A DNA stretch of 64,000 bases, taken from Patescibacteria group bacterium. Lineage in GTDB: Bacteria; Patescibacteriota; Doudnabacteria; UBA920. Shown here in pieces: positions 1,930 to 28,712 of this stretch. The notes beneath the pieces were generated by a model. That model ran no database searches and was not told the origin of the DNA. It saw only the letters and a program-made list of their open reading frames with translations. Position 1 is the stretch's first letter, and every line of letters begins with the position of its first letter. Position numbers and translations under genes: made by a program. Where the stretch lies: NCBI GenBank assembly GCA_036726225.1, contig DAIMCS010000005.1:3808-67807 (forward strand), read 5' to 3'.

Positions 1930-1943
1930 ACTAAATAAAAAAT

Positions 1944-2876: not shown

Positions 2877-2910
2877 TTTTTATTTATTTAACTCCATTCC
2901 CTTACTACTA

Positions 2911-3189
2911 TTACTGAAGCATATTCCCAAACTTCTTCTGGAGCATTTTTTTATGCTGCTTAAATAAATCTTCCAAAGCCGAACGGATGTGCCTGGCAAT
3001 TTCGCTTTTGTCCCCCGCTATGTCCGGGCTTACTTCCACGCTTTGGATATTTTGGTTTCCGTCAATAGTTAAAACAATCTTCCCTCCGGAAGATTTGCCG
3101 CTCACAGTCTCTGTAGAAAGCTTAGACTCCATTGCCTTAGCTTGCTTACGCATCTCGTTTATGTCTTTAAGTTTGTCCAATAATCCCAT
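2911..3189 (-). CDS. YbaB/EbfC family nucleoid-associated protein
   Basis: 92 aa. MGLLDKLKD...MRKQAKAME signature of YbaB. Confidence 0.75.
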   Translation of the reverse strand: MGLLDKLKDINEMRKQAKAMESKLSTETVSGKSSGGKIVLTIDGNQNIQSVEVSPDIAGDKSEIARHIRSALEDLFKQHKKMLQKKFGNMLQ

Positions 3190-3240: not shown

Positions 3241-4098
3241 TTAACTTGCCAAACACGCGTTATAAGCCCTTACTTGAGAGTTATATTCCTGTTTTAGCGA
3301 CCCTAAAACATCTACTTTATTATTGTAAATTTTAACCAAATTGTTATATTCGGAAACTTTTCTGTTATATTCCTCGTATTCGGCTTTGGTTTTTGGGTCA
3401 CTTGAATCCAGCTCCTGCTTTTTAACGCTTAACTCTGCCGCCAGGGAATCAACTTCAGCCTGTAAAAAATTGATCTGGGTTTTTATATTTGAGTTAACAG
3501 TTGGGCAGCTGCTCGCCGGCCTGCCAAACTCCTGCACCGCCATCCAAACCTTTTTGCCTTTGTACGTGCCCTTGCCCACGGCCACGCCTATTTCGGTATA
3601 TTTTGGATTTAAGATGTTTGCCCTGTGTCCCGGGCTGTCCATCCACGCCTTTACTAAGGCCTCATCGTCTTCAAAATTCCCCAGCGCAAGGTTTTCACCA
3701 ATGGAGATGTAATCATAGCCCGCTTCTTTAGCCAAATCCGCCGCCGCCTTGCCCTGCGGGCTGTCGTGCTCAAAATACTGCTGGACAAACATATCTTTCA
3801 GTTTGTTTTGGGCAGCCACATTCAGCTTGCTGTTAGTTTGTAGGGCGGGCAAATTGCCGTTCTGACTGCGGTTTTGGTTGGTCCAAAACAATACTCCGTT
3901 TACGGTTAAAAAAGTTTCCTGCTCAAATAAACTGCCAATTAAGGGCGGCGGGGTGGAAATATCTTCTTTTATTTCCTCAAATATGGGGCTTTGGACAAGC
4001 TCCGGCAGTTTGTGGGCGTACTTTTGGATTTGGAACCTGTACCGCCAGCCAAAAACCACCAAAACTAAAATGAAAATAAATGCTAAAACTTTCTTCAT
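3241..4098 (-). CDS. CAP (SCP/PR-1-like) domain protein with N-terminal TM and C-terminal coiled coil
   Basis: GHRANILNPKYTEIGVAV CAP motif. C-terminal heptad-rich region. Confidence 0.65.
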   Translation of the reverse strand: MKKVLAFIFILVLVVFGWRYRFQIQKYAHKLPELVQSPIFEEIKEDISTPPPLIGSLFEQETFLTVNGVLFWTNQNRSQNGNLPALQTNSKLNVAAQNKLKDMFVQQYFEHDSPQGKAAADLAKEAGYDYISIGENLALGNFEDDEALVKAWMDSPGHRANILNPKYTEIGVAVGKGTYKGKKVWMAVQEFGRPASSCPTVNSNIKTQINFLQAEVDSLAAELSVKKQELDSSDPKTKAEYEEYNRKVSEYNNLVKIYNNKVDVLGSLKQEYNSQVRAYNACLAS

Positions 4099-4101
4099 AT
4101 G

Positions 4102-4329
4102 TTACCTAATTATCGGCTCCGGAAGGTGTGGGTCTACTATAGATTTGCCGTTGGGAAGCTCGCATGACCTGGGGTAGTAATCTGCTTTAACCGGATAACC
4201 TGCGGCTACGCATTCTTCAAAAGTCGACACCTTAGCCTCTTTGCTTTTTTTAAGTGAAGGATAAAGCAGCATAAACAATACTATTACTGCGGCCAAAAAC
4301 AAAAACATTACGGAAATTATTTTTTTCAT
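4102..4329 (-). CDS. Small membrane protein, hypothetical
   Basis: N-terminal TM. Two Cys. Abuts the neighbouring genes. Confidence 0.3.
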   Translation of the reverse strand: MKKIISVMFLFLAAVIVLFMLLYPSLKKSKEAKVSTFEECVAAGYPVKADYYPRSCELPNGKSIVDPHLPEPIIR

Positions 4330-4586
4330 ACCGTTGCAGACAGGAAACGCTTTAATCTTTGTTTAAGATAACGCTTCCCGAATCCTGATTTTAAATATTT
4401 TTCTCTAACCATTGCATCCAGCTTATTCAGACAGGCCTCATAATAAACTAAAATGAATGGCCCACGACCTTTTGTATAACCAAATAAATTTTTTTGATGT
4501 TGATTAAAGCGTTTCCGTAAATCACTGGTAAATCCTGTATATAGTAGTCCGGTTTTCGTACTTTTTAAAACGTAAACATAATACAT
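4326..4586 (-). CDS. GIY-YIG nuclease domain protein
   Basis: YVYVLKS...LYTGFTSDLRKRFNQH GIY-YIG signature. Confidence 0.7.
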   Translation of the reverse strand: MYYVYVLKSTKTGLLYTGFTSDLRKRFNQHQKNLFGYTKGRGPFILVYYEACLNKLDAMVREKYLKSGFGKRYLKQRLKRFLSATV

Positions 4587-4604
4587 AATGCGTCTGCAAC
4601 GGTA

Positions 4605-5222
4605 TTAAGCTCTTACAAAATAAGTAATCCAGCTTGTAGCGCTGTTTAATTTTGAAGCTTTCCTGCCGCTGGATAAAATAGAAAATTCTGCCAATTCCAA
4701 AATTTTTGAAAATTCTTGTTGTTCATAGTAAGCAAAAAATCGAGAAGCTCCGGAATCCTGCCAAACCTCATTTTTCTCACCCGTACCTTCTTTTAAAGAA
4801 ATAAAACCAACGCCTCCGGGTAAAATAACTTGTTTTATAATTCCTAAAATTTCTTTAATGCTGCTTTTTGGAATATGTAAAAGTGATGATGCTGCCCAGA
4901 AACCGTTAAATTTTCTTCTAAGTTGAGGAATCTCCTCATATAGCATAACTTGGAACTGCGCATTTGGATTATTTTCTTTAGCTATGGCAACCATATTTTG
5001 CGAGCCATCAATCCCTAAATACTCGTAACCATTTTCAATGAACCAAAAAGAATCCGCGCCTGTTCCACAACCTATGTCTAAAATAGAGCCTTGCGATTGC
5101 AATTCCCGAAATTTTTCAAATTCTTCAGCCCACACACTGTCCTTGCCAAGCCTGCGGGCCTTTGCCCAACTTGTTGAAATTGTGTCGTAAGTATTTAAAG
5201 TTTGTTTTTCAGATTCCTGCAT
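4605..5222 (-). CDS. Class I SAM-dependent methyltransferase
   Basis: ILDIGCGTG motif I. Confidence 0.7.
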   Translation of the reverse strand: MQESEKQTLNTYDTISTSWAKARRLGKDSVWAEEFEKFRELQSQGSILDIGCGTGADSFWFIENGYEYLGIDGSQNMVAIAKENNPNAQFQVMLYEEIPQLRRKFNGFWAASSLLHIPKSSIKEILGIIKQVILPGGVGFISLKEGTGEKNEVWQDSGASRFFAYYEQQEFSKILELAEFSILSSGRKASKLNSATSWITYFVRA

Positions 5223-6534
5223 TTATGAAGTTCAAAATTTCCTGTTGTGAAAGTTCTTTTTCCGCAGATTCCTTCAAACTTTTCACTTTATACTTCCCGC
5301 TTTTAACTTCCTCTTCCCCTACCACCAACACAAAAGGAATTTTTTCTTTGTCCGCGGTTTTTACCTGCGCGGAAACTTTGCGGTCTGTAAGGTCAACCGC
5401 TACAGCCAGGCCCTGCTCACGTAAATTTGATGCTAATTTATTTGCAGCCTCAAGATAATTTTCCAAATGGCAAATGTACAGCTTAACCGGTGGCTGGTAT
5501 GGTGGCAACAGATTGTATGTCTCCAAAAAATCCCTGGTTGTCACGTCGCCCCAGCCAAAACCTATGCCCGTAACTTTCTCTACCCCAAAAATTCCGACCA
5601 AATCGTCATAACGGCCGCCGCCAAAAAGCGCGCGCGGATTTTTTGGGTTAGTGTCGTACATTTCAAAAACCGTGCCTGTGTAATAGTCAAAACCGCGCAC
5701 CAGCATTTCGTCTATTACTGCATTTTTTATACCTTTTTTTACGAGCGCTTGTTGAACCGACATAAGCTCTTTGTACTCTTCACTATTTTTATATTTGCTG
5801 TCTTCAAAAAAATCCAGGCCGCGGTTTATAAAATTGGCAACATCTACAGATTTTTCAGAGCCGCCCATTTTTTCTTTTACCATTTCATCCACATCTGCCG
5901 ATGAAATTTTATCCTTTTTGTCCATTATCTTTGAAACAGCCTGGGATTGTTCGGGGTTTAGGCCCAAAACCTCCCGGAGTAAAAAATTTAAAAACTTGCG
6001 GTTGTTAATGCGAATAACAAACTGCTCGGCCGTGGCTCCAAACGCCCTCATAGCATCGTGCGCCAGAGAGATAATTTCAATATCTGCGTCTATGCCGTCC
6101 ACCCCGAACATATCTACATTTAACTGCCAGTGTTCGCGAAGGCGCCCACGCTGTGGGCGTTCGTAGCGAAAAAGATTGGGGATGGAATACCATCTAAGAG
6201 GAAAACTTAACTCTTTACGCTTTTGCGCCACCATCCTCGCAACGGTTGGTGTCATTTCCGGCCGAATAGTGACATCACGCCCGCCCCTGTCTGTAAAAGT
6301 ATAAGTTTGTTCATTAACAATTTCGTCGCCCGACTTAGCTTTGTACAATTCTGTTTCTTCTAAAATTGAAGCTCCATATTCTAAGTAGCCGTAACTTTCC
6401 ACAACTTTGCGCCAAACCGAAAAAATATAGTTTTGCACAAACTGGTCTTGCGGGTAGAAATCCCGCGTACCTTTATAGGGTTCCAAAGATAATTTTTTTG
6501 TATTTTTTTCCATATTTATTGACCAGTAACCCAC
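5209..6534 (-). CDS. hisS: Histidyl-tRNA synthetase
   Basis: Class II aaRS motifs. GTRDFYPQD N-terminus. 441 aa. Confidence 0.9.
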   Translation of the reverse strand: MGYWSINMEKNTKKLSLEPYKGTRDFYPQDQFVQNYIFSVWRKVVESYGYLEYGASILEETELYKAKSGDEIVNEQTYTFTDRGGRDVTIRPEMTPTVARMVAQKRKELSFPLRWYSIPNLFRYERPQRGRLREHWQLNVDMFGVDGIDADIEIISLAHDAMRAFGATAEQFVIRINNRKFLNFLLREVLGLNPEQSQAVSKIMDKKDKISSADVDEMVKEKMGGSEKSVDVANFINRGLDFFEDSKYKNSEEYKELMSVQQALVKKGIKNAVIDEMLVRGFDYYTGTVFEMYDTNPKNPRALFGGGRYDDLVGIFGVEKVTGIGFGWGDVTTRDFLETYNLLPPYQPPVKLYICHLENYLEAANKLASNLREQGLAVAVDLTDRKVSAQVKTADKEKIPFVLVVGEEEVKSGKYKVKSLKESAEKELSQQEILNFINAGI

Positions 6535-6612: not shown

Positions 6613-6723
6613 TGAAAAAAATGTTCGAACAAGGTCACCATTTCTGGTGCCAGAGATTCCTCCTGTTTGGAGGACAGCCTCCGAAACAATTATCACCCAA
6701 AAAGCAGAAGAAGTCAATGGCTA

Positions 6724-7167
6724 TTAAATTATTAGACCTAAATTATTATTTACAAGAATTGGCCTTAACCCCAAAATTTCTTCTGTCCATGACAAATTAG
6801 GAATTGGGTTAAGTAAATAAATTTTCTTTTCTAAATGAAAAGCCAGGCCCATTTCCATTAAAGTGTTCGGACCAATGTAACCGGCTATGCCGTTTTTGTC
6901 GTAGTTGGTAACTAAAATAACATCTGACCATTTTACTTCTTCAAAATGGTCAATAATTCTCTGACTGTGGTTGTCTAAAAATGAAGGGTCTTTGAATGGA
7001 TCGGTTTTTTTAAATTTGTAATACTCCAGTGTATGCCATTTTTTACCGTGCCCGTCGACAAATTCAACCGGAGGCATATGCGCCTCATGCCCCATACTTT
7101 CCAACTGTTTTTTTACAGCTTCCATTTCTAGAATGAACGCCGTACTGCCGCAAATAGTTATTTTCAT
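6724..7167 (-). CDS. Hypothetical Rossmann-like protein (possibly nucleoside 2-deoxyribosyltransferase-like)
   Basis: MKITICGS N-terminus and the size fit that family. Weak call. Confidence 0.3.
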   Translation of the reverse strand: MKITICGSTAFILEMEAVKKQLESMGHEAHMPPVEFVDGHGKKWHTLEYYKFKKTDPFKDPSFLDNHSQRIIDHFEEVKWSDVILVTNYDKNGIAGYIGPNTLMEMGLAFHLEKKIYLLNPIPNLSWTEEILGLRPILVNNNLGLII

Positions 7168-9620: not shown

Positions 9621-10604
9621 ATGAAACTCCTAATAGTCGGTTCAGTCGCATACGATTCCATAAAAACGCCTTTTGGCAAGGCTAATAAAACCCTAGGCGG
9701 CAGCGCCACGTATTTTTCTTTGGCCGCGAGCTTTTTTACCAAACCTTCTCTGGTAGCTGTAGTTGGGCAGGATTTTAAAGATGAAGAAGTATTTAAACGC
9801 CTGGGGATAAACATTAGTGGGTTGGAAAAACAACCAGGCAAAACTTTTGCCTGGGGAGGGGAATATAGTTTTGATTTAAACTCCAGGAAGACTTTGTTTA
9901 CTCATTTGAATGTGTTTGAAAATTTTAAGCCAAAATTATCATCGGATCACAAAAAATCAAAATTTGTTTTTTTGGGCAACATCCACCCATCCCTTCAGCT
10001 GGATGTTTTAAAGCAGGTTAATGCGCCTAAATTTGTTGGGCTGGATACTATGAATTTGTGGATAGAAAAAACTTTAAAAGATTTGAAAACCGTTTTAAAA
10101 AAAGTTGATATTTTAATAATAAACGATTCAGAAGCGCGGGAGTTATCGCGGGAACATAATTTGCTGAAAGGCGCTAAAAAAATTCTGTCGCTAATGCAAT
10201 CACCCTCCCCTAGCCCCTCCCATCAAGGGAGGGGAACCAAAAACATTCCCTCCCCTAGAGGGGGAGGGTTAGGGAGGGGTGAAAAAATTGTGATCATCAA
10301 ACGCGGCGAATTCGGTTTGCTCATGTTCCAAAAAGGAAACATTTTCCATCTTCCCGGCTATCCGCTTGAAGATGTGGTTGACCCCACCGGTGCGGGCGAC
10401 AGCTTTGCCGGCGGGTTTTTTGGCTATTTGGCCAAGACCGATGATATTTCCTGGCCAAACCTAAAAAAAGCATGCGTCGCAGGCTCGGTTATGGCTTCTT
10501 TTTGTGTGGAAAAATTAGGGACTAAAAGGCTATTAGAAATTAAAAGCTTAGACATAACCCAAAGGCTAAAAGATTTTAAAACATTGACTCATTTTGAAAT
10601 TTAG
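9621..10604 (+). CDS. PfkB-family carbohydrate kinase (ribokinase-like) carrying an in-frame repeat-derived insertion
   Basis: DPTGAGDSFAGGF anion-hole motif. GC-rich repeat family 1 at 10203-10282 is in frame and encodes SPSPSPSHQGRG...GGGLGRGEK. Confidence 0.75.
   Translation: MKLLIVGSVAYDSIKTPFGKANKTLGGSATYFSLAASFFTKPSLVAVVGQDFKDEEVFKRLGINISGLEKQPGKTFAWGGEYSFDLNSRKTLFTHLNVFENFKPKLSSDHKKSKFVFLGNIHPSLQLDVLKQVNAPKFVGLDTMNLWIEKTLKDLKTVLKKVDILIINDSEARELSREHNLLKGAKKILSLMQSPSPSPSHQGRGTKNIPSPRGGGLGRGEKIVIIKRGEFGLLMFQKGNIFHLPGYPLEDVVDPTGAGDSFAGGFFGYLAKTDDISWPNLKKACVAGSVMASFCVEKLGTKRLLEIKSLDITQRLKDFKTLTHFEI
10203..10282. repeat. GC-rich palindromic repeat family 1, copy b (two tandem units) inside the PfkB coding sequence
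   Basis: ccctcccctagcccctcccatcaagggaggggaa followed by ccctcccctagagggggagggttagggaggggtg. Matches 14579-14614 almost base for base. Confidence 0.7.
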
Positions 10605-17073: not shown

Positions 17074-18624
17074 CTAGCTTGTCATATTCTTGGGGCGTAG
17101 CCAAGCGGTAAGGCACGGGCCTTTGAAGCCTGCATTCCCAGGTTCGATCCCTGGCGCCCCAGCCAAGACAAAACTTAGGTTAGTTTTAGAGAAATTTTTT
17201 CGTGCGACGCAGAGCGTCGCCCATTGTTTTACGGGGGATTCTTCAACTTTTTTATTTCGCAAAATCAGGTTCGAGCCGAAGATTTTTTGGAGGGAGGATT
17301 TTTTGGAGGGGAGGTCGTCTCCTTTTGCTATTTCGTCTAGCGTTGAAGCGTCCTTTATCCACTCTCGCATAGGTTCGAGCCACAGACTTCCCCCTCTTTG
17401 CGACTTGGCCAGAACTTCCTCAACCGATCTCTTTTCGGACATAGCCTCTCGCTTCTTGGCGAGGTAGGTTTCTCGGTCTATGTCCTGTTCAACAAAGAGG
17501 TCGGTAAGGCGGTCTATCTTGGCGTTAAAGACGCTTAATCGCTCCCGTAAGCTGTGGACTAAGGTTGCCGTAGTCTTGGAGCTACCTTTCTCGTCCTCGT
17601 CTGCGAGAGCCAATAACCCTTGCGTCCAATCGCTCGGCATTGCGTAATGTGTGAGTATTTCGGATAGGTCGGCGGCGAGGACTTCTTCTCTCACAAAAGG
17701 TTGAGAGCAACGAGCCGCCGATTTTTTTGTACAGCGATAGTAGATGTGGCCTTTCTGCTCCTCTGCGGTTATGCCCATACCGCACTCCCCGCAACGCAAA
17801 AGCCCACAAAAGGCTTTCGGTTCTTTATCTTTTCTCATTGGATGTCCACGACGGACAATTACGATCTGAACTTTATCAAAAAGGTGTTTGTCTATGAGTG
17901 GCGTATGTTTGCCCTCGTACATTTCGCCAGCGTAGCGGAAATGTCCGTAGTAAAAAGGATTAACGAGAATAAATCTTATTCTGTCTTTATGTATGGCGTT
18001 GCCATTTAAACTCTTAACCCCGTTTTCAAAAAGGAATGTAGAAATATCTTCAAGACGAGAGTTGCCTTTAGCGTAAAGCTCAAAGGCGGCTCTGATAAAT
18101 TTCGCTTTCTTCCGATCAACGACTATCGTCTTTGCTCGCACATCATTGAGGTAGCCAACGGGAGCAGTGCCGGGAAACTGTCCGAGCCGTGCCTTATGAT
18201 GTAGCCCTCGGCTTGTATTGGAGCTTAGGTCACGGATAAATTGGTTAGCCATACCAAACTCAACCGACATCATAAGTACATTGTCGTTTGAGAGATGGCT
18301 TCTGTCGTGCGTTTGAATACGCTGAATCGTCCCCTGTTGGAGTAGCCAACTGATCTGTCCGCCGTCCACGGGATTACGAGCCAAGCGATCTAGCTTCCAA
18401 CAAATAATGCCCTGTGCCTCGCCAGTCTGTATGCGTAGGAGCATATCGTTAAAGATCGGGCGACCGGGCATTTTTGCAGTTCGCTTTTCTACAAATTCGG
18501 CCGCAACTTCTAAGCCCTCGCTTTTCGCAAGCGAACGAAGTTCGTCTAATTGACCTTCGATGGAGAGGACTTGTTTATCCTCGACATCAGTAGATTTTCT
18601 AGCGTAAAGAAAGTATCTATTCAT
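17074..18624 (-). CDS. Large serine recombinase (integrase/resolvase family)
   Basis: N-terminal YARKSTD...Q catalytic Ser motif. Recombinase domain. CxxC...C zinc ribbon and coiled coil. ATG at 18624 (MNRYFLYARKST); the track start at 18702 is upstream. The 3' end reads across attL into the tRNA. Confidence 0.85.
   Translation of the reverse strand: MNRYFLYARKSTDVEDKQVLSIEGQLDELRSLAKSEGLEVAAEFVEKRTAKMPGRPIFNDMLLRIQTGEAQGIICWKLDRLARNPVDGGQISWLLQQGTIQRIQTHDRSHLSNDNVLMMSVEFGMANQFIRDLSSNTSRGLHHKARLGQFPGTAPVGYLNDVRAKTIVVDRKKAKFIRAAFELYAKGNSRLEDISTFLFENGVKSLNGNAIHKDRIRFILVNPFYYGHFRYAGEMYEGKHTPLIDKHLFDKVQIVIVRRGHPMRKDKEPKAFCGLLRCGECGMGITAEEQKGHIYYRCTKKSAARCSQPFVREEVLAADLSEILTHYAMPSDWTQGLLALADEDEKGSSKTTATLVHSLRERLSVFNAKIDRLTDLFVEQDIDRETYLAKKREAMSEKRSVEEVLAKSQRGGSLWLEPMREWIKDASTLDEIAKGDDLPSKKSSLQKIFGSNLILRNKKVEESPVKQWATLCVARKNFSKTNLSFVLAGAPGIEPGNAGFKGPCLTAWLRPKNMTS
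17091..17165 (+). tRNA. tRNA-Gln (anticodon UUG)
   Basis: 75 nt. Near-identical in arms to E. coli tRNA-Gln (TGGGG...GCCAAGCGGTAAGGCA...TTCGAnTCC...CCCCAGCCA). Anticodon loop CUUUGAA. Encoded CCA. Confidence 0.85.
17162..17317. repeat. IR-A (left terminal repeat of the element, about 156 bp)
   Basis: Reverse-complement match to 24641-24805, with one roughly 30-bp divergent patch. Confidence 0.8.
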
Positions 18625-18684
18625 AGTTGTAGTATACCACAACGGATGGTTTAAAACACAACTTTCAGCTATAATGGGATAAAT

Positions 18685-18891
18685 ATGAAAAGTGAAGCCC
18701 AAAAATTAGGCGATAATCTAAAACGAATAAGAACAGAGAAAGATATATCGCAGGGAGATATTGCACGAGCCTTAGAAGTGGATAAGAGTTTTGTCAGTAA
18801 TATAGAAAACGGCAAGACTAACCCGACACTTGCGACGATTGCAAAGATAGCAAAGGCAATCGGTGTTTCGGTTGATGAGTTATTAAAGTAA
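18685..18891 (+). CDS. XRE-family HTH transcriptional regulator
   Basis: Classic HTH_3: ISQGDIARALEVDKSFVSNIENG. Confidence 0.8.
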   Translation: MKSEAQKLGDNLKRIRTEKDISQGDIARALEVDKSFVSNIENGKTNPTLATIAKIAKAIGVSVDELLK

Positions 18892-18896
18892 AAATT

Positions 18897-20429
18897 ATGG
18901 CGACTTTAAATTGGATAGGAAAAGAAGCAGTAGTGAATCACGATAAAGAAGTGCCTTTTAAACTGCTCCAAAAAGTGCCGAGTGCTTCGGTGGGTAAGGA
19001 ATCAAAAAACCTTATCATTCACGGAGATAATCTTGAAGCTCTAAAGGCACTTATACCTTTTTATAAAAGTAAGGTGAAGTGCATTTATATTGATCCACCT
19101 TACAACACAGGCAACGAGGGTTGGGTATATAACGACAAAGTTAATTCTCCCAAAATCCAAGAATGGATTAAGAAGGTTGTTGGACGAGAGGGAGAAGATT
19201 TGACCCGCCACGATAAATGGATATGTATGATGTATCCAAGAATGAAGTTGCTACGCGACTTACTTGCAAACGATGGTGTAATTTTCGTAAGTATTGATGA
19301 CAACGAACAGCACTATCTAAGAATGGTTATGGACGAGATTTTTGGCGAAAAAAACTTTGTTGCTGACTTCATTTGGAATCACAGGAAATCAGGTCAAAAT
19401 GATATTGATGTATCTTTGTCTCATAATTATACGCTCTGTTATGCAAAAAAAAGAGCTGGACTCTTTTTGAATCGTCTCGCTATTGATGAAGGAAAGTTTT
19501 CTAATCCAGATAGCGATCCACGGGGCGATTGGGTTGCCGACCCTATGGACGCCCCCGCAATCCGAGAAAATTTAATGTATCCAATCATTAACCCAAATAC
19601 GAAACAAACATTTTTACCCCCTGTTGGGAGACATTGGCGATTTACTAAGGAAAAATACGAACAAGCGTTGAAGGATAATAGAATTGTTTTCGGGAAAACT
19701 GGCAAGTCCAAACCACAATTCAAACGCTTTAAAAGCGAAGCAGAGGAAAAAGGCATAAATGTTTTTACTATTTGGGACGATGTAGGAACTGCAACAGAAG
19801 GAACAAAAGAAATAATGGAGCTTTTTGGTGGAAAAAAAATCTTTGATACTCCTAAGCCAACTTCGTTTATTAAGAAAATTATTAAAATTGCTACGAAAGA
19901 TAATTCAATCGTATTGGATTCTTTTGCTGGTTCTGGGACAACTGGACACGCCGTTTTGGATTTAAATAAAGAAGATGGAATCAAACGCAGTTTTATTTTA
20001 GTAGAAATGGAAAATGATGTTGCTAAGAAAATTACCGCCGAGCGTATAAAGAGGGCTATCAAAAAGTATAAATATGATGACGGCTTTGAATATTGCGAAC
20101 TAGCCAAACCGCTTTTCAATGAGAAAGGGCAAATCAATGAGCAATGCACATATGGAGAACTTGCTACTTATATTTATTTTACCGAGACGCGAACAAATGC
20201 GGAAAAGAAGACTATCAAGTCGCCATTCATAGGAGAAAGTGGAGGCGTTTCTTACTACCTTATTTATGAAGGCAGAGATAAGAACGATCTCACTCGTTCA
20301 GCCCTTACGAAGTTGAAAATAAAGAAGCCAGCCGTAGTTTATGCGGATCGCTGTTTGGTGGACGAAGATGAGTTAAGAGAAAAAGGGATTGTATTCAAAC
20401 AAATCCCATACGAGATAAAAGTTTACTAA
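18897..20429 (+). CDS. Type III restriction-modification methyltransferase (Mod, N6-adenine, beta class)
   Basis: DPPYN motif IV precedes FAGSGTTG motif I (permuted order). The adjacent Res helicase-nuclease supports the call. Confidence 0.8.
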   Translation: MATLNWIGKEAVVNHDKEVPFKLLQKVPSASVGKESKNLIIHGDNLEALKALIPFYKSKVKCIYIDPPYNTGNEGWVYNDKVNSPKIQEWIKKVVGREGEDLTRHDKWICMMYPRMKLLRDLLANDGVIFVSIDDNEQHYLRMVMDEIFGEKNFVADFIWNHRKSGQNDIDVSLSHNYTLCYAKKRAGLFLNRLAIDEGKFSNPDSDPRGDWVADPMDAPAIRENLMYPIINPNTKQTFLPPVGRHWRFTKEKYEQALKDNRIVFGKTGKSKPQFKRFKSEAEEKGINVFTIWDDVGTATEGTKEIMELFGGKKIFDTPKPTSFIKKIIKIATKDNSIVLDSFAGSGTTGHAVLDLNKEDGIKRSFILVEMENDVAKKITAERIKRAIKKYKYDDGFEYCELAKPLFNEKGQINEQCTYGELATYIYFTETRTNAEKKTIKSPFIGESGGVSYYLIYEGRDKNDLTRSALTKLKIKKPAVVYADRCLVDEDELREKGIVFKQIPYEIKVY

Positions 20430-20430
20430 T

Positions 20431-22704
20431 ATGAAACTAAAACGCTACCAAGAAAACGCAATAGAAAAACTGGAAGAGTTTTTAGCGTTGCTCAAAAAGC
20501 AAAAGCCAAAACTTGCTTTCTATGAATTGACCGAAGAAAAATATAATGCCGAGTGGTTCGGTGATGTGCCTTTTGTTTGTATACGCATACCGACTGGTGG
20601 CGGAAAAACACTCGTCGGCTGTAAGTCAGTTGAACGGATAATGTCTATCGCATTACAGCACAAAATGGATACGGGTATTGTGATGTGGTTCGTGCCGTCC
20701 GATTCAATAAAGACGCAGACACTAAAAAAGTTTAGAGATTTGAAAGACTACCACTATGAAATGCTCAACGATTCTTTTGATACTAAGTTCAAAGTCTTTT
20801 CTAACGAGGAAGCACTTACCATTACGCCCGAAGATGTAAGAAATAATCTTTGTATTGTAGTCGCCAGTTTAGACGCTTTCCGTAAAGATCAGAAGATACA
20901 AAATAAATACAAGGTTTACAAAGAGAACGGGTCATTGATGGATCATTTCCAAAACCTTAAAGATGATTCGGCTCTTGAAAAAGATAAAGCGGGAACAGTC
21001 GTAAGTTCGTTAGCGAATGTCGTTCGTAAAAATAACCCACTCATTGTGATAGACGAAGGTCACCATACGCAAACAGAGCTATCAGTAGATATGCTTAAAG
21101 GACTTAGACCCTCTTTCATTATTGAGTTCACGGCTACGCCAAGAGACGGGAGCAATGTGCTTGTTCATACAAGTGCTTCGGAATTGAAAATTGAGGAGAT
21201 GGTAAAGATTCCTATTGTGCTTGAAAGTCGGACACAATGGGAACAGGTAGTCGCTGACGGAATAGCAAAGCGTGAGGAGCTTGAAAAACGAGCTAAGAAA
21301 CTTAAAGGCGAGTACATCCGCCCAATAGTTTTGCTTCAAGCCCAACCGAAAAGCAAAGTTAAAGCGACAATAACGATAGAGCAACTCAAACAGATGTTGC
21401 TTGATAAAAAAATTCCTGAAGAACAAATAAAAATAAAGACTTCGGAAGCTGATGAATTAGAAGGAATTGATTTGTTCTCTAAGAAATGTGAGGTGCGATA
21501 TATTCTCACAGTAAACGCACTTGCAGAAGGTTGGGACTGCTCCTTCGCTTATGTGCTTATTTCTGTTGCGAACTTAGGAGCAAGAATAGCAGTAGAGCAG
21601 ATTATCGGACGTGTTATCAGAATGCCTAACGCTCGCCGCAAAGAAGACGAAGCAATGAATCGCAGTTATGTATTTGCTTCTTCAGTAGATTTTAACGAGG
21701 CGGCGGACAAGGTTATCAAGGGACTTGTGGATAACGGATACAGCAAGAACGACCTTATTAGTGTTGCTGACGAGAAAGACTACTCCGATCCGTTAGAAGC
21801 GAAGAAGGCAATCAAAAAAGATTTGAAAGTGCCGATGATGACGCTCGGCAAAGACAAACTTTCCTTTGAAGACCTCTTGGGTGAGGACTTCAAATTAGCA
21901 AAACAGGACGCAGACTTTGATTTTAAAATCCATTATGACTTTGACGGGCAAGCAACGATAGATATTACGGAAGATGATGAGTGGCTACAAGGCAAACAGT
22001 TGAGCTTGCCGTATCAGTATCTTGAAGGCAATCACTCCGTTGAGGAATTAGCGTCTTGGCTTGATAAGAAGCTCCGCTTCCCAATGCTCAACCCCGACGA
22101 CAAAGCCGTCTTTATTGAAAGGGCTGTTCAAACGCAGATAAAGAAAAAGCGTAAACTCGCTGAATTATCGGTGAATAGATATTTACTCGCCGATCGCCTA
22201 AGTGTGGTGATAAATGAAATTCTTGAATTGTATACGAAAAAGATTTTTAACGGCTTGATGGCAAAAAAGAGCATTACTCTTGGTCTATTTGATTCGTATC
22301 CGACAACGATCACTCTCAAGTCGCCTGTGCCGAGGGTGTTTAATAAAAACCTATACGAGAGAATAGATGGTATCAACGGCGAGGAACGCGCGTTTGTAGA
22401 GCGTATTGACTTGGGGGCTTTGGATAATATTGAATACTGGGTGAGAAACCGAGAAAAAGTAGACCCGTTCTACATTCAAGGTTGGCGTAAAGGAAAGTTT
22501 TATCCCGACTTTGTGGCTATAACCAAGAAAGGCAACATCGTTGCCCTTGAATGGAAGGGAGAAGATCGCGTAAGCAACGAGGATACCGCCTACAAAGTAG
22601 AAATAGGAAATATTTGGGAAAAACTTGGTCGTGGTAAAACCTATTTCTTTCTCGTTCATAATGGGAATACCGAAGAAGTTTTAGGTAAACTGCGAAACCT
22701 ATAA
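20431..22704 (+). CDS. Type III restriction enzyme Res subunit (SF2 helicase + PD-(D/E)xK nuclease)
   Basis: Walker A PTGGGKT. DEGH box VIDEGHH. C-terminal YPDF...EWK nuclease motif. Start codon overlaps the mod stop. Confidence 0.8.
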   Translation: MKLKRYQENAIEKLEEFLALLKKQKPKLAFYELTEEKYNAEWFGDVPFVCIRIPTGGGKTLVGCKSVERIMSIALQHKMDTGIVMWFVPSDSIKTQTLKKFRDLKDYHYEMLNDSFDTKFKVFSNEEALTITPEDVRNNLCIVVASLDAFRKDQKIQNKYKVYKENGSLMDHFQNLKDDSALEKDKAGTVVSSLANVVRKNNPLIVIDEGHHTQTELSVDMLKGLRPSFIIEFTATPRDGSNVLVHTSASELKIEEMVKIPIVLESRTQWEQVVADGIAKREELEKRAKKLKGEYIRPIVLLQAQPKSKVKATITIEQLKQMLLDKKIPEEQIKIKTSEADELEGIDLFSKKCEVRYILTVNALAEGWDCSFAYVLISVANLGARIAVEQIIGRVIRMPNARRKEDEAMNRSYVFASSVDFNEAADKVIKGLVDNGYSKNDLISVADEKDYSDPLEAKKAIKKDLKVPMMTLGKDKLSFEDLLGEDFKLAKQDADFDFKIHYDFDGQATIDITEDDEWLQGKQLSLPYQYLEGNHSVEELASWLDKKLRFPMLNPDDKAVFIERAVQTQIKKKRKLAELSVNRYLLADRLSVVINEILELYTKKIFNGLMAKKSITLGLFDSYPTTITLKSPVPRVFNKNLYERIDGINGEERAFVERIDLGALDNIEYWVRNREKVDPFYIQGWRKGKFYPDFVAITKKGNIVALEWKGEDRVSNEDTAYKVEIGNIWEKLGRGKTYFFLVHNGNTEEVLGKLRNL

Positions 22705-22710
22705 AAAGAT

Positions 22711-24558
22711 ATGAGACTACTCAATTTTAGAATTAAAAATTATAAGTCCATCACCGATTCAAAAGATGTATTCCTCTCCGAGTTGGATAACATTACTATC
22801 CTCGCGGGACAAAATGAATCTGGTAAAAGTTCTATTTTACGGGCTTTGAATGATTTTGAAAGCGGAGAATTTGAAAAAGATTCAGTTCCTTTTTCACTTG
22901 AAAACGAAACTCAACAATCCGTGAGTTGCACTTACCGGATTGAGGATCAAGACAACCTAATTGAGCTTTTGACCGATTCAGTCATTGAAGATTTTTCTCT
23001 TAAATTACAGGAGGGTGAACAGATTTTGGATAAAGAGAAAATTGCGAGAATAAAAAACTTTACCCTAAGCCGCATAAGTGAAAAAGACGCTGTTCGTCTT
23101 GAGTTAGATGACGCAACTTTCAATATTTTTAAATCCGCCGTTCTTGAAAAACCGGCAATACCAAATCCAACTGCCGAGCAAGAACAGGGTGATGTTGTGA
23201 AAGAAAAGTATATCGCTGTTTCTGAAGATATGAATAGTAAAGTTGCCGAAATATTTTGGGCAAATTGCCCAAAGGTTGTTTACTTTGATGATTTTTGTGA
23301 CTTACTACCGGACAAGATTTTTATTTCAGCTCTAAAAAATAAGCAAAAAGATACACAGGGATATAAAGCCGTGAGGAACTTAGAGAATATTCTCAAAACG
23401 GATTTTGTATCAAAGGACGGAGAAGTTGATTCCCGACGAAGAACCAAAGAGACGCGAGAAAACGATACTCTTTCAATTGATTTCCAAAATGATTGGGGTC
23501 AAAGGATACACGGAGAGAACAAGGTTATCGTCAAGTATAATTTTGAGAAGCGTGTCGGTGATAATGAAAATGGTTCTTATGTTAATTTCTTTGTAGAAAC
23601 GAAGGAGGGGCAACCTCTACCACCTAAGCAAAGGAGTAAAGGATTGATTTGGTTTCTATCTCTTTGGCTTGAACTCAAAGCACAAAATGCTTCCGGTAAT
23701 GATTTAATTCTTCTATTAGATGAGCCAGATCAACATTTACATGTTAAAGCTCAAAAAGATATTTTAAAACTTATAAATAAACTTGCGACAACTACCGAAG
23801 TTGAAGAATCAGAAGCAGAGCGACGCGGCGATCAAATAATCTACGCTACTCATTCGCCCTACCTCATTGAGATAGAGCGTTTAAATCGCGTAAAGTTGAT
23901 AATCAATTCAGAAAAGCAAGGAACTCAAGTTGAAGATATTGCGACAAGCAAGATAAATACCGAGTTCAAAAAAGACGCCCTACAACCTATTGTGGACGCA
24001 ATAGGGTTAAGTGTTAATGAGTTTTCTTCGTTAGACAAAAACAATATTATTCTTGAGGGGATTTCGGATTTTTATTATTTCTCTGCTTTTAAGAAGCTCT
24101 TACAACGCACCGAAGAGTATAAGTTTATTCCGGGAATCGGCGTTAGGCAGATAAATAATCTAATATCTCTTGCTATCGGCTACGATCTCAACTGGTTGGT
24201 TATCATTGATGATGATCCAACTATTGGCGGGAAAGATTCAAAGAAGAAATATGACGAGATAAAAGACCATGTTTTTGATGGTGATTCAGCAAAAACGGAC
24301 AAGAAGGTAAATATTTTGAGCGGAATCGTTGGAGTAGAAAACATGTTTACGATTGACGACTTAAAATTAGTTGATTCAAAGGTTAATACTAATACCGATA
24401 TGGTTAAGGTTGTGGGGAAAAGGAGAAAAGTCTTGTTTGCTCAAATGTTTTATGAAAAAGTCTTGAGTGGAGAGATTACAAAGGATAAGCTATCACAATC
24501 TTCCATCAATAACTTTACCCAAGCCTTTGATTTTATTGACAGAGGTATGACCATCTAA
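22711..24558 (+). CDS. OLD-family ABC-ATPase/Toprim nuclease (class 1 OLD or fused PARIS-like AriAB)
   Basis: GQNESGKSS Walker A. LLLDEPDQHLH Walker B/D-loop. C-terminal Toprim with EGISD and IIDDD motifs. No adjacent helicase. Confidence 0.7.
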   Translation: MRLLNFRIKNYKSITDSKDVFLSELDNITILAGQNESGKSSILRALNDFESGEFEKDSVPFSLENETQQSVSCTYRIEDQDNLIELLTDSVIEDFSLKLQEGEQILDKEKIARIKNFTLSRISEKDAVRLELDDATFNIFKSAVLEKPAIPNPTAEQEQGDVVKEKYIAVSEDMNSKVAEIFWANCPKVVYFDDFCDLLPDKIFISALKNKQKDTQGYKAVRNLENILKTDFVSKDGEVDSRRRTKETRENDTLSIDFQNDWGQRIHGENKVIVKYNFEKRVGDNENGSYVNFFVETKEGQPLPPKQRSKGLIWFLSLWLELKAQNASGNDLILLLDEPDQHLHVKAQKDILKLINKLATTTEVEESEAERRGDQIIYATHSPYLIEIERLNRVKLIINSEKQGTQVEDIATSKINTEFKKDALQPIVDAIGLSVNEFSSLDKNNIILEGISDFYYFSAFKKLLQRTEEYKFIPGIGVRQINNLISLAIGYDLNWLVIIDDDPTIGGKDSKKKYDEIKDHVFDGDSAKTDKKVNILSGIVGVENMFTIDDLKLVDSKVNTNTDMVKVVGKRRKVLFAQMFYEKVLSGEITKDKLSQSSINNFTQAFDFIDRGMTI

Positions 24559-24563
24559 GGGAG

Positions 24564-24597
24564 TTTGCCGATCTTCCAAGACGGCAAAAGTTTTTAA
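24564..24597 (+). terminator. Putative terminator of the XRE-mod-res-OLD operon
   Basis: ttgccg...cggcaa hairpin followed by aagttttta. Confidence 0.35.
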
Positions 24598-24640
24598 CAC
24601 GCGCACGGGTAGGGTGGGGCAAGTGTTATGTCTTGCGTGA

Positions 24641-24805
24641 CGACCTCCCCTCCAAAAAATCCTCCCTCCAAAAATCTTCGGCTTTGTATTCTTGAATCTG
24701 TATTTTGCGAAATAAAAAAGTTGAAGAATCCCCCGTAAAACAATGGGCGACGCTCTGCGTCGCACGAAAAAATTTCTCTAAAACTAACCTAAGTTTTGTC
24801 TTGGC
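24641..24805. repeat. IR-A' (internal inverted copy of the left end)
   Basis: Reverse complement of 17162-17317. Shares the 5-bp GCCAA core with IR-B. Confidence 0.8.
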
Positions 24806-25091
24806 TCGTCTTTATAGTACCGCTCGAACGATTTTCATGGAAGATTTGGGCTAGTTTACCTAGTCACGCGGGTAGTCACTCGCTCCTTGCCCGAATGACT
24901 AGGGAGTATTGCTGAAAGCCCTAGTGAACACGGGGTCTTTCATCAATACCATCTCACAAAAAAGCAGTCCTACTTCACTCCGCTCCTCCTAGCGTCCGTC
25001 GCTCCGTGAAAATGTCACGGGTTCGTGTCTGGTGGCTCGGCCTTTGCTTCCGTCCTGCTAATTCTTTTTGCTCGTTGGTGGGGGGGGGTAA
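24801..25091. repeat. IR-B (internal inverted copy of the right end, 291 bp)
   Basis: Perfect reverse-complement match to 31010-31299, except G9 versus C8 in the homopolymer tract. Confidence 0.85.
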
Positions 25092-25146: not shown

Positions 25147-26478
25147 TTATTTTTCAAACCAATTTTTTAGTTTTTCTTCTACAATATCGCGTGGAGTAGC
25201 GTAGCGTTCCCGCGATATTTTTAAAATAGTTTCTCGGTCTGCTTCGTATCCCGATGTTTTGAGCGGGGGCATAGTGATCGCCGAGAAAGCGTGAGACATT
25301 TTTCCGTCTATAAGAAGACGGAGAGCAATATGGTGGTTATCTAAATGCTCCAAGTCTTCGCTCGTAAATACTGGCTTCATTTCTTCCGCTAATTCCTTAG
25401 CGTCGTAATTCCCAACGCGGAAAGAAAGTATACTGCCTACATTGCCAAAAACAGCGTGTTTTATGGCCTCCGGTAGCTGATAGAGGTATTGGTGGGCTAT
25501 GTTTAAATTAAGGCGGTATTTACGAGCTTCGGAGAGGATAGACGGGAAAATGTCGGTGGAGAAGTTTTGAAACTCATCTATGTAGAGGTAAAAGTCTTTG
25601 CGTTGTTCTTCGGGTAGATTCTGACGTTCCAAAGCGGAGAGATACATTTTAGTAATAATGGCCGACCCTAAAAGGTTGGATTTATCCTCGCCGACTTTCC
25701 CTTTGGATAAATTGGCCAAGAGGATTCTTTTGTTGTCCATAACAAAACCGAAGTCCACCGAGCTTTTGGGTTGGCCGACAATATTCCGCATTTGAGGAGA
25801 AGTGAGAAGTTGTCCGACTTTGTTTTGAACTGGCGAGATTATTTCTTTACGAAAACGCTCGTCATAGTTTTCGTAATCATCTACCCAAAACATTTTTACA
25901 ATCGGGTCTTTGATATTCCCGACAATGAGTTTTCTGAACTCATTGTCCACGAGCATACGATACACGCCGAGTAAAGTTTGTCCGGGCGTATCCATCAAAG
26001 CCAAGACGCAGTTGTATAAAATGTGTTCAAGACGCGGACCCCAAAAATCTTTCCACAAGTGCCTGAAAACGGAAATCAGAGACGAGGCGACGAGATGTTT
26101 TTCATCATCACCTTTCGCTTCCAGAATATTGATAGCGACGGGGAAAGATGTGTCCGCAGGATTGAAATAGACAACTTCGTTCGTGCGAGTTTTCGGTATG
26201 TAGTTTAATAAATCTTCAACCAAGTCGCCGTGAGGATCAATCAAAGCAACGCCGTGATTCAAGCGTAAGTCTTGAATCACCATATTTTTAAGGAGCGTTG
26301 ATTTGCCCGTTCCTGTTTTACCGATAATGTAGATATGATTCCGGCGATCTTGCGTCTTTATGCCGAACGCGCGACGCTGTTCCCTGAATGTCGTTTCGCC
26401 GAGAGATTCTATTTCGTCTAAATGATATTCGTCCAAAGGCGTAAAAACTGTTTCCCGAAGTTTTCCTTCCAAAGACAA
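25147..26478 (-). CDS. Soluble TraD/VirD4/TrwB-like P-loop ATPase (type IV coupling-protein-like, FtsK-HerA superfamily), no TM anchor
   Basis: IIGKTGTGKST Walker A. ALIDPHGD. FYLYIDEFQNF Walker B. LNIAHQ. Paralog of 27204-28712. Confidence 0.55.
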   Translation of the reverse strand: MSLEGKLRETVFTPLDEYHLDEIESLGETTFREQRRAFGIKTQDRRNHIYIIGKTGTGKSTLLKNMVIQDLRLNHGVALIDPHGDLVEDLLNYIPKTRTNEVVYFNPADTSFPVAINILEAKGDDEKHLVASSLISVFRHLWKDFWGPRLEHILYNCVLALMDTPGQTLLGVYRMLVDNEFRKLIVGNIKDPIVKMFWVDDYENYDERFRKEIISPVQNKVGQLLTSPQMRNIVGQPKSSVDFGFVMDNKRILLANLSKGKVGEDKSNLLGSAIITKMYLSALERQNLPEEQRKDFYLYIDEFQNFSTDIFPSILSEARKYRLNLNIAHQYLYQLPEAIKHAVFGNVGSILSFRVGNYDAKELAEEMKPVFTSEDLEHLDNHHIALRLLIDGKMSHAFSAITMPPLKTSGYEADRETILKISRERYATPRDIVEEKLKNWFEK

Positions 26479-26703: not shown

Positions 26704-27207
26704 ATGGATTATAAAATTGATGTTGAAAATTTCACTCTACCAAACGGACAGACAGTTGAGGTTTCCAAACGCATTTATTCTTTCCAAAAGTGGAGAGGAG
26801 ATGAAATAAAAAACGACTACGGCGGTAAGGCGGTATTAGACAATGAAGGTAGTCCGCTTTTCGCTGAACTTGTAATACTACGGCTTTTGGAAAAAGAAGG
26901 TTGGTCTGGTATTTGGGTTGATACTTACGGCAAAAAGTTTAGGATGGGTTTACCAGAGAAATCTGATCCTATTTCGTTGCCTCCCGAGAAGCAAAGTTTA
27001 TTAGATAATATTTCAAAACAGGCGGGCGGATTTAAGGGTTGCTGGGATGTTTTTGCTTGGAAGGACAACGAATATCTTTTTGCCGAATCTAAGCGTATCG
27101 GCAAAGATTCAATACGCGATACTCAAATCAATTGGCTCTTTACCGCTCTCCAAGTGGGTATTCCTATCAAATCGTTTTTGCTCGTAGAGTGGAATATACA
27201 GAATTAA
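26704..27207 (+). CDS. Hypothetical small protein with a possible PD-(D/E)xK nuclease motif
   Basis: CWDVFAW...FAESKR fits D-x(n)-E-x-K. Sits between the two paralogous ATPase genes on the opposite strand. Confidence 0.3.
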   Translation: MDYKIDVENFTLPNGQTVEVSKRIYSFQKWRGDEIKNDYGGKAVLDNEGSPLFAELVILRLLEKEGWSGIWVDTYGKKFRMGLPEKSDPISLPPEKQSLLDNISKQAGGFKGCWDVFAWKDNEYLFAESKRIGKDSIRDTQINWLFTALQVGIPIKSFLLVEWNIQN

Positions 27208-28712
27208 AGTTTTCTTTTCGGCTCTCTAAAACTCTTTGGTTCGTCTAATTTCATTAACTCCTCTCGTCGTGCTTGATATTCTTCCTCAATTTCTTTGCGT
27301 TCCCGCAGATAGTTTTTTCCTATCTCACTTGAAGCTACCGCCGCAACGAATTCTTTTTCGTCCATTTCTGCAAATTCGTGAGGCGGAGGGAGATCGAGCG
27401 TTCGGACGGCGATAACTCCACCATCATTTTTATTTTTAATAACACATGACCGCCGTGGGAGTTCCTGAAGCCCTTGTATGTATGCTTCCCATCCCGGCGG
27501 GTCGTTGTAAATTGAGGCGAGAGATTCTTTAGCTAAAATATTAGAATCGTCCCGTGAGATTCTAAAATACGCTTGAAGTTCGCAGTTGGTAAGAATAGAG
27601 GCTCTCAAAGTTGTGGGAAGTTGAGCGAGATTTTGATGTGCCAGCAAAAGAGCGAGCTGATACTTGCGGGCTTCTGCGAGCATATCTTTAAAACTATCCG
27701 TTGCAAAGTTTTGAAACTCGTCTATGTAGAGATAAAACTTTCGGCGTTGAGGCTCTGGTGTATCTGTTCGGGAGAACGCCGCCGCCTGTATTTTCGCAAT
27801 AAGTAATGAGCCTAAAAGATCAGCACTCCCTTTTAGTCTGCCTTTATCCAGTTTAACGAGCAAGATTTTACCATCGTCCATAATTTCACGCAGATTGAAA
27901 GAACTTTTAGGCGAGGAAAGCATTTGTCCAACCTTGCCGTTAAACAAAAAGGCGTTCACTTTATTCAGAGTGGATTCTGCCCACTCGTCCTGTGTCCTGC
28001 GGGGTAAGCTATTAAATCTCTGAAAATATTCTCGGCAAACGCCGTGTTCAACTTTCTCTAAAATCTTGTTGCGTACTTCAAGGTCGGTAAGAAATAGAGG
28101 CAGTTCCGCAAGCGTAAGGTTATTTTGAATAAGAGCGACTAAAGTATTTTTTAGCAAAGCCTCCATTCTTGCACCCCAAGCGTCAATCCAAATTTTCTCA
28201 AATGCCCCTGTGAGTTCCAAGGCAATAGAATCAGCGTCTTCTCCCTTAGTGATTTCTAGCGGATTGAAAGTCACAATCCGTTCCGTGTTAGTTAGGTCAA
28301 CAAGAACGACACGCTCTTGGAGAAATTCGGGGTTATCTTTATTGAGAGCATACAAATATCCTTTTATGTCTTCCGTTAGGTCGCCGTGAGGATCAATAAC
28401 GCCAAACCCTAAACCATTTTCTATATCCTGCTTTACGAGCGATTCCAAAAATTTAGTTTTGCCGCTTCCCGAAGCACCAATAACATAAAAGTGAGTAGCT
28501 CGTGCCTCTTGCGACACGCCTTTCAGTTGGTATACCTCTTTGCCCTCGTCTATATTCTCAAACGAGGCGATACCCAAAGCCAACTCGTTAGGTGCGGGTT
28601 TTCTCATACGCACCTCTGGCACGAGTTCACGCTCGGAAAAGAGCGGGGCTTTGGGCTTTTTCGTGGTAAGCCAACGCCACAAAATTTTGAGGCGATCTTT
28701 TAACATATACAA
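27204..28712 (-). CDS. Soluble TraD/VirD4-like P-loop ATPase, paralog 2, with a charged C-terminal tail
   Basis: IGASGSGKTKF Walker A. VIDPHGD. FYLYIDEFQNF. LLAHQ. Collinear with 25147-26478. Confidence 0.55.
   Translation of the reverse strand: MYMLKDRLKILWRWLTTKKPKAPLFSERELVPEVRMRKPAPNELALGIASFENIDEGKEVYQLKGVSQEARATHFYVIGASGSGKTKFLESLVKQDIENGLGFGVIDPHGDLTEDIKGYLYALNKDNPEFLQERVVLVDLTNTERIVTFNPLEITKGEDADSIALELTGAFEKIWIDAWGARMEALLKNTLVALIQNNLTLAELPLFLTDLEVRNKILEKVEHGVCREYFQRFNSLPRRTQDEWAESTLNKVNAFLFNGKVGQMLSSPKSSFNLREIMDDGKILLVKLDKGRLKGSADLLGSLLIAKIQAAAFSRTDTPEPQRRKFYLYIDEFQNFATDSFKDMLAEARKYQLALLLAHQNLAQLPTTLRASILTNCELQAYFRISRDDSNILAKESLASIYNDPPGWEAYIQGLQELPRRSCVIKNKNDGGVIAVRTLDLPPPHEFAEMDEKEFVAAVASSEIGKNYLRERKEIEEEYQARREELMKLDEPKSFREPKRKL

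Follow-up and report, generated by a model that had tools for sequence, protein, structure and literature searches.

Why is a nuclease of the OLD family encoded directly behind a Type III restriction-modification (RM) system on a small mobile element, and do the two work together or only travel together? The question arises from a 64,000-nucleotide stretch of DNA of a Patescibacteria group bacterium (GenBank assembly GCA_036726225.1, contig DAIMCS010000005.1, positions 3,808 to 67,807 of the forward strand), hereafter the window, in which four co-oriented open reading frames (ORFs) occupy positions 18685-24558 of the plus strand, exactly where a sequence-only reading, made without database searches, had placed a defence operon. 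Three of these genes form a predicted complete Type III RM system with a probable controller, and the fourth encodes an OLD-family nuclease whose large clade is habitually part of RM operons of Types I, II and III. We consider it reasonably probable (about 0.6) that the cassette is a two-layer module on a small integrative element, in which restriction acts first and the OLD protein is an RM-linked back-up or guardian nuclease.

The features of the window were defined by ORF calls, profile scans with Pfam, PADLOC and NCBIfam, ARAGORN, Rfam and a repeat search. The ORF list and the profile matches bear out the gene order that the sequence-only reading had given, namely XRE regulator, Mod, Res and OLD on one strand and tightly packed, with spacers of 5, 1 and 6 nucleotides (nt), respectively. 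The proposed overlap of the mod stop with the res start has to be corrected to a 1-nt gap, as the TAA at 20427-20429 is followed by a T and then by the res ATG at 20431. The first gene (18685-18891, plus strand) encodes an XRE/Cro-type helix-turn-helix (HTH) protein of 68 residues (Pfam HTH_3, 9.8e-18; PADLOC HTH_VI, 3e-16, and Control_protein, 2.8e-14), whose size and position fit what is probably the controller (C) protein of the RM operon. Upstream of it, a divergent control region of 60 nt (18625-18684), read directly from the sequence, separates it from a recombinase gene and contains a TATAAT box 9 nt before the XRE ATG. The control region holds no demonstrated C-box operator; its only candidate, a possible operator, is the inverted repeat GTTGT-N8-ACAAC at 18628-18645.

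The second gene (18897-20429, plus strand) encodes a Type III Mod subunit of 510 residues, matched over its full length by PADLOC MTase_III (3.9e-182) and also by Pfam N6_N4_Mtase (5.6e-39). It has the properties of a beta-class N6-adenine methyltransferase, with DPPY at residues 66-69, FAGSGTT at 343-349 and a variable central target-recognition region. The third gene (20431-22704, plus strand) encodes a Type III Res subunit of 757 residues, a superfamily 2 helicase of the ResIII type with a DEGH box (PADLOC REase_III, 5.3e-95; Pfam ResIII, 1.2e-16). There is no Pfam match in the Res C-terminus, which carries a PD...ExK nuclease motif, YPDF...ALEWKG (residues 690-712), the sole C-terminal segment that aligns to the RE_endonuc-positive stretch of a helicase-nuclease from another locus (L006). 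The assignment as Res is clear for the helicase, and the putative nuclease part is assigned by motif alignment only.

The fourth gene (22711-24558, plus strand) encodes a protein of 615 residues that matches Pfam AAA_15 (3.8e-23) and AAA_21 above cut-off. An ABC ATPase with an inserted domain covers residues 1 to about 400, followed by a Toprim domain and a helical C-terminal region at about 440-615. The motifs quoted in the sequence-only reading (GxNxSGKS, EGISD and IIDDD) are real and are invariant across 42 homologues of 44-94% identity. The invariant residues of the ATPase comprise the Walker A motif GQNESGKS (33-40) preceded by A32, RSKG (308-311), the Walker B residues D337-E338-P339 and H381; those of the Toprim domain are E449-G-x-S-D453, D500-D-D502 and E543. 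The protein therefore combines the N-terminal ABC ATPase of the OLD family with a C-terminal Toprim that retains the conserved Glu and DxD.

At the sequence level the Toprim domain is weakly recognised, with a sub-threshold match to OLD-like_TOPRIM (E 0.006) when the C-terminal third is searched alone against Pfam. A direct sequence search of the PDB returned marginal ATPase matches only (phmmer to 6P74, E 0.006), and a search with the family profile reached 6P74 at 4.8e-9 over the ATPase part only. Because the profile search stopped short of the Toprim domain, structure prediction was needed. The full-length model (pLDDT, the predicted local distance difference test score, 82.8) has its best PDB fold matches in Thermus scotoductus OLD (TsOLD, 6P74; 1.8e-18), GajA and the OLD of retron-Eco8, and the top structural matches of the isolated C-terminal domain are the Toprim domains of OLD and GajA proteins, the best being 6NK8. 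The modelled domain folds as an OLD-type Toprim and the homologues retain the nuclease residues, in agreement with the ATPase-plus-Toprim architecture proposed earlier. Motifs and model together indicate a full-length OLD nuclease with intact ATPase and Toprim motifs, from a family that is remote in sequence from every solved OLD. A word-indexed search returned 673 matches to the family, and an exhaustive search returned 1,091 clusters at 50% identity with E up to 1e-30.

Neighbourhoods were labelled from our own ORF calls and from iterative searches seeded with Pfam-checked proteins, and the counts are lower bounds. At least 27 of the 74 genome loci place the OLD homologue and RM genes together in one co-oriented cluster. 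Fourteen loci, from at least six phyla (L011, L017, L019, L020, L022, L026, L027, L038, L043, L051, L053, L055, L060 and L066), have the homologue inserted between the hsd genes of one Type I system, in the order hsdM-hsdS-OLD-hsdR or hsdM-OLD-hsdS. The hosts include Patescibacteria lineages, Ignavibacteria, Chitinophagales, Bdellovibrionales and Clostridia. The hsdM-hsdS-X-hsdR order of the prr locus matches that of these Type I-embedded loci. The closest relatives of the window protein (60-69% identity; L001-L004, L018 and L042) come after a small XRE gene and varied Type II RM genes, for example N6_N4 with MvaI/BcnI, EcoRI-methylase with GmrSD/HNH, D12 with N6_N4, and an Eco57I/TaqI_C-type enzyme. 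A more distant homologue (L046) lies beside NgoPII and a C5 methylase, a 93%-identical one (P0001, in L075) is placed after Mod-Res, and that of L006 follows a helicase/RE_endonuc protein. Because RM linkage is seen from 26% to 93% identity, we regard it as a trait of the family. No relatives of the window Mod or Res were found in the 74 genome loci that encode OLD homologues.

The contig of L006 was binned in a metagenome-assembled genome of Nanoarchaeota, and on it the OLD homologue, 60% identical to that of the window, overlaps the stop of the helicase/RE_endonuc gene (3-1250 and 1247-3076). This suggests either a joint transfer of RM and OLD genes between DPANN archaea and Patescibacteria or wrong binning of the contig.

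OLD nucleases have been sorted by gene context into four classes, of which class 1 comprises single genes that are not near other defence genes (PMC10568477). The sequence-only reading had described the window protein as stand-alone, either class 1 or a fused PARIS effector rather than Gabija. Its rejection of Gabija stands: no helicase gene follows OLD, the downstream sequence being non-coding DNA and an inverted repeat. The stand-alone, class 1 label does not, given the 6-nt distance from a Type III res and the RM-embedded homologues. By the published context definitions (PMC10568477), this is an OLD-family member outside class 1, class 2, class 3 and PARIS (class 4). It shares its fold with class 1 and class 2 proteins (P2 Old and TsOLD, 6P74; GajA and the Burkholderia pseudomallei protein, 6NK8), 6P74 being the best full-length match and 6NK8 the best domain match. 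Its sequence similarity is marginal, and in contrast to them its clade is RM-embedded, neither an isolated gene nor partnered with GajB.

Accessory nucleases inside RM operons have precedents. RloAB is encoded within Type I RM loci of Campylobacter (PMC10802264), PrrC (in EcoPrrI) and PARIS have been described as guardians of RM systems (PMC12707154), and modules of OLD-ABC plus TOPRIM are embedded in BREX loci (PMC12839542). RloAB and PrrC are likewise an NTPase with a nuclease as an accessory inside an RM operon. However, RloAB is made of two genes, whereas the window protein joins ATPase and Toprim in one chain and accompanies a Type III system; it has no Pfam match to RloB (PF13707), and the resemblance is one of context only. 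PrrC differs in having an anticodon nuclease in place of the Toprim. PARIS and the BREX modules likewise place a Toprim under the control of an ABC ATPase, next to methylation-based defence and with a proposed role as an anti-restriction back-up, but the window protein is a single polypeptide and has no DUF4435-type AriB. The kinds of genes are already known, while the RM-embedded fused OLD, here with a Type III system, differs from the accessories described.

Variants of the same cassette were compared using contigs that share an identical XRE protein (the window, L171 and L075). In a three-way alignment the ends of the Mod proteins are nearly identical, and residues of about 155-330 (window 19360-19890) are unrelated among the three. 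This central variation has the appearance of a classic target-recognition domain swap, implying three predicted methylation and restriction specificities in closely related populations. L171 shares with the window an identical XRE, a near-identical Res and the right repeat arm. Its OLD slot is occupied by an AAA_15 ATPase of 484 residues (4244-5698) that is 26% identical to OLD over the ATPase and ends in about 100 unrelated residues with an RNSIHH motif and no Pfam match; the protein may be an ATPase-RNase effector. The arrangement reads as a conserved slot for an ABC-ATPase effector after the RM genes, in which the occupant has been exchanged.

In the mechanism that we favour, the four genes are the cargo of a small integrative element with a large serine recombinase, which sits at the 3' end of a tRNA-Gln gene. 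They form one operon, probably under the control of the XRE protein. Mod would methylate the host sites and the helicase-nuclease Res would cut unmodified incoming DNA. In the OLD protein, the ABC ATPase would govern a two-metal Toprim nuclease, which presumably fires when restriction fails, is bypassed or is inhibited; its substrate might be DNA or RNA, and it might or might not contact Mod or Res physically. We read OLD as an RM-linked second layer because its clade is habitually built into RM operons of all three types.

The main rival explanation is that OLD is an autonomous, class-1-like single-gene nuclease that was co-packaged with the RM genes, the two layers being independent. Several observations weigh on this side and against a guardian role. 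One element of the same design, inserted at a tRNA-Thr (L034; arms 6644-6746 and 10161-10263), consists of a recombinase and OLD only, and because it carries OLD as its sole cargo, OLD can travel, and perhaps work, by itself; in that locus the gene is split by a frameshift. In approximately half of the family loci no RM gene can be recognised nearby; HTH-IrrE or AbiJ genes are the neighbours in some of these, housekeeping genes such as trigger factor or MiaA in others, and some contigs are too short to judge. Moreover, the fold is closest to the class 1 protein TsOLD, no anti-restriction sensor domain was identified, and the carrier family accepts any defence gene, which makes co-carriage alone weak evidence of coupling. 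Yet clustering in defence islands gives no explanation for the 14 loci with Type I genes on both sides of OLD. The close spacing between res and OLD, and the L171 variant that keeps the slot and swaps the effector, also argue for an RM-linked gene. We therefore judge independent carriage a possible but unlikely explanation. If it were correct, the locus would be an ordinary defence island.

A fused PARIS system, the other class proposed in the sequence-only reading, would place an AriA-like ATPase that senses an Ocr-like anti-restriction protein in one chain with a tRNA-cutting Toprim RNase, which it releases. Its logic fits the RM association, and a sister element (L083) carries as cargo a true AAA_15-DUF4435 fusion. 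The window protein itself matches PADLOC AriA (2.4e-24) and AriAB (2.6e-15), and AriA chains appear at 5e-8 in the PDB search with the family profile. However, the two best AriA models, of 373 and 304 positions, agree with Pfam AAA_15 and AAA_21 in length and in match range, and we treat these matches as generic for that reason. The AriAB model covers residues 318-490 only, DUF4435 (AriB) has no match in the protein with E up to 10, and AriB is absent from the fold matches of both the full-length model and the isolated C-terminal domain. That domain is nearest to OLD and GajA Toprims rather than to AriB, and the PADLOC Old and GajA models align through it (residues of about 320-547). A PARIS identity is improbable on this evidence.

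A Gabija (class 2) or retron (class 3) OLD with an overlooked partner is more doubtful still. The strong fold matches to GajA and to the retron-Eco8 OLD, together with GajA hidden Markov models at 9e-17, speak for such an origin, but the plus strand has no ORF from the OLD gene to the right repeat arm, beyond which come coupling-like ATPases of type IV secretion systems (T4SS) on the other strand. No UvrD/PcrA/Rep-like GajB was found in the window neighbourhood or next to OLD homologues in the neighbourhood map of the 74 loci. Similarly, the Pfam scan of the window detected no reverse transcriptase domain, and the Rfam scan detected two tRNAs and nothing else. Equally hard to credit is a role of the ATPase-Toprim protein in replication, resolution or partition of the element itself, to which its place as the last gene before the element end and the occurrence of Toprim domains in topoisomerases and primases might point, because homologues in RM operons occur without any recombinase, most elements of the recombinase family have no OLD and 18 have no cargo at all.

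The carrier measures 7,646 base pairs (bp) between the outer ends of its repeats (17161-24806), plus about 100 nt of conserved far flank. Its integration target is a tRNA-Gln(UUG) gene (17091-17165, plus strand; ARAGORN; Rfam tRNA, 63.3 bits), the last 5 nt of which (AGCCA, 17161-17165) are the first 5 nt of the left repeat arm. The divergent recombinase gene (17074-18624, minus strand) confirms carriage on a serine-recombinase island. It encodes 516 residues from the ATG at 18624, with all three Pfam domains of large serine recombinases above cut-off (Resolvase, 2e-17; Recombinase, 3e-13; Zn_ribbon_recom, 8e-10) and NCBIfam matches to CcrB (7e-26) and XisF (3e-22) below cut-off. The gene converges on the tRNA-Gln gene, and its ORF crosses the left arm and continues antisense over the tRNA.

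The left inverted-repeat arm (17161-17319), found by the repeat search, consists of 105 nt (17161-17265) and 36 nt (17284-17319), and the right arm (24639-24806) of 36 nt (24639-24674) and 105 nt (24702-24806). Both segments are 100% complementary between the arms, and the non-matching patch between them is 18 nt long on the left and 27 nt on the right. The left arm corresponds to the last 50 or so recombinase codons (residues of about 436-488); the right arm, which is non-coding, repeats the recombinase 3' end in inverted orientation except for a 1-nt deletion and the 27-nt patch. A terminator-like GC hairpin followed by a T-run lies in the left arm at 17204-17220 (plus strand), and the same hairpin recurs in the right arm at 24763-24747 (minus strand). 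Beyond the right arm, the conserved far flank (24807-24910, minus strand; outer limit uncertain) presents the same motif series as about 25 independent loci. Read inward on the minus strand, it contains TAGTCAC repeats (two copies and an inverted copy, 24861-24902), CATGAAAAT, CGTTCGAGC and a TATAAA 4 nt before the arm. This flank looks like an inward-facing promoter and also T-loop-like, the T-loop-like box sitting about 4 nt further out than the T-loop of a real tRNA.

The next genes to the right, outside the element, encode two paralogous TrwB/VirD4-like coupling ATPases (25147-26478 and 27204-28712, both minus strand), which share DNA stretches of 73-83% identity and also match PADLOC mad8. 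The first may itself be mobile, since its cluster of at least 90% identity includes sequences from several Parcubacteria and Zambryskibacteria assemblies. A larger element that includes these T4SS-coupling-like genes is unsupported, as conservation between loci does not extend to the genes past the far flank.

The same design recurs widely. We collected 80 metagenome loci (L076-L155) with recombinases 45-92% identical to that of the window, of which 73 contain the recombinase 3' end. An inverted copy of this end lies upstream of the gene in 57 of the 73, with arms of a median length of 119 nt and a median identity of 97%. A further example is L004, with arms at 3731-3826 and 5314-5409. At loci with a called tRNA, the end of the arm lies 4-6 nt (usually 5) within the tRNA 3' end, and the insertions involve ten tRNA types (Leu, Gln, Glu, Thr, Val, Gly, Arg, Tyr, Ile and Met). 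The arms diverge strongly between loci and are matched within each locus. The GC hairpin lies about 40 nt from the outer arm end and, across 24 loci, shows compensatory changes in five of six pairs while the encoded peptide varies; a T-run follows it in 12 of 30 loci, the window included. The far-flank consensus from about 25 loci, read inward, is TTTTTG..AAAAT.GGTTC(G/T)AGC-N8-GTATAAT, ending 1-5 nt from the arm. The short repeats in this flank are locus-specific, and the genes further out are unrelated between loci.

The 18 elements without cargo measure about 1.6-1.9 kb; in the others the recombinase start and the far arm are 0.5-8 kb apart. In most cases the cargo genes run divergently from the recombinase, and in 13 of 30 elements the first of them is a small, homologous XRE gene. 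The cargo includes Type II and Type III RM systems, Shedu, CBASS cyclases, Hachiman HamA, KAP NTPases, AbiEii, the AAA_15-DUF4435 fusion and OLD, so that this family of recombinase elements samples much of the known defence repertoire. By count, Shedu SduA was found in three elements, CBASS cyclases in two and HamA in one; IS110-family transposases were found in two.

Small site-specific-recombinase elements with accessory or defence cargo at a fixed chromosomal site are also known as staphylococcal cassette chromosome (SCC) cassettes, mobilised by Ccr large serine recombinases, and as tRNA-targeting tycheposons (bioRxiv 10.1101/2020.12.28.424599). The window recombinase is CcrB/XisF-like, with the NCBIfam matches below cut-off. 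Unlike these elements, that of the window is bounded by near-perfect inverted repeats of about 120 nt and no direct repeats were found; one of its repeats, which begins 5 nt within the tRNA, is the recombinase 3' coding sequence, and its family uses at least ten tRNA types. The literature searched contained nothing specific on this recombinase element, on its concerted repeats or on an RM-embedded fused OLD, and the carrier looks undescribed there.

Several models of the element were considered and rejected. The inverted repeat is not an assembly artefact, as the same architecture occurs in independent assemblies and genomes (L034, L004 and the metagenome loci) and the internal patch differs between the arms. 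An invertible, phase-variable segment is disfavoured: all resolved loci have the same orientation, with the 3' end of the recombinase gene towards the tRNA and the second arm towards the conserved far flank, and the flipped order is absent. The junction sequences fit neither an attP x attB reaction whose 2-bp core lies at the arm boundary nor one in which attP is a perfect palindrome and host DNA follows the right arm. The far flank is conserved between unrelated genomes. No target-site duplication or direct repeat of the tRNA end was found, neither an empty site nor a circular junction was present among same-population contigs or 125 tRNA flanks of all fetched loci, and viral contigs contained no relatives of the element. 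The arms could be a replacement terminator and insulator for the tRNA combined with a small RNA antisense to the recombinase mRNA; other options are extended recombinase-binding sites and a single-strand panhandle. The arm hairpin in particular may act as a replacement tRNA terminator or as part of an RNA of about 70 nt antisense to the recombinase mRNA.

Two observations concern the recovery of these elements from databases. In JGI contigs of the same population (L156, L157, L160, L166 and L167) the gene calls omit the recombinase, whereas ENA contigs call the 516-residue protein; the overlap of the ORF with the tRNA may be the cause, and automatic annotation may under-report the family. In addition, contigs of independent assemblies begin or end exactly in the arms (L159, L162-L165, L169, L172 and many of L076-L155), and unitigs that coincide with the inter-arm segment are frequent. 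Because contig ends fall in the arms, the elements are systematically fragmented in metagenome assemblies.

Taken further, the cassette can be tentatively viewed as one of a so far undescribed family of miniature defence shuttles in Patescibacteria and their relatives, a broader proposal that we hold with less than even confidence. Such shuttles may be elements of 1.6-10 kb with a large serine recombinase, inserted precisely at the CCA end of many different tRNA genes, and each may carry one defence system behind a small XRE gene. They may be bounded by inverted repeats of about 120 nt that evolve in concert, one arm being the C-terminal coding sequence of the recombinase. The far arm, placed behind a conserved box that resembles a promoter and a T-loop, could specify an RNA of about 70 nt with the same sequence as the tRNA 3' trailer, running antisense to the recombinase mRNA; if this is true, the antisense RNA would be a built-in control of element mobility. 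In the same proposal, the RM-embedded OLD clade would constitute a fifth, context-defined class of OLD and a portable guardian of restriction systems.

The large, RM-wired OLD clade (1,091 clusters) fits none of the four OLD classes, and it offers a tractable model, fused in a single protein, for the back-up of restriction by ATPase-Toprim nucleases. The recombinases apparently recognise generic tRNA ends and may be of interest to genome engineers. Candidate-phyla bacteria have tiny genomes and few known mobile elements. Movement of single defence systems from one tRNA site to another by such an element would help to explain how these bacteria exchange immunity.

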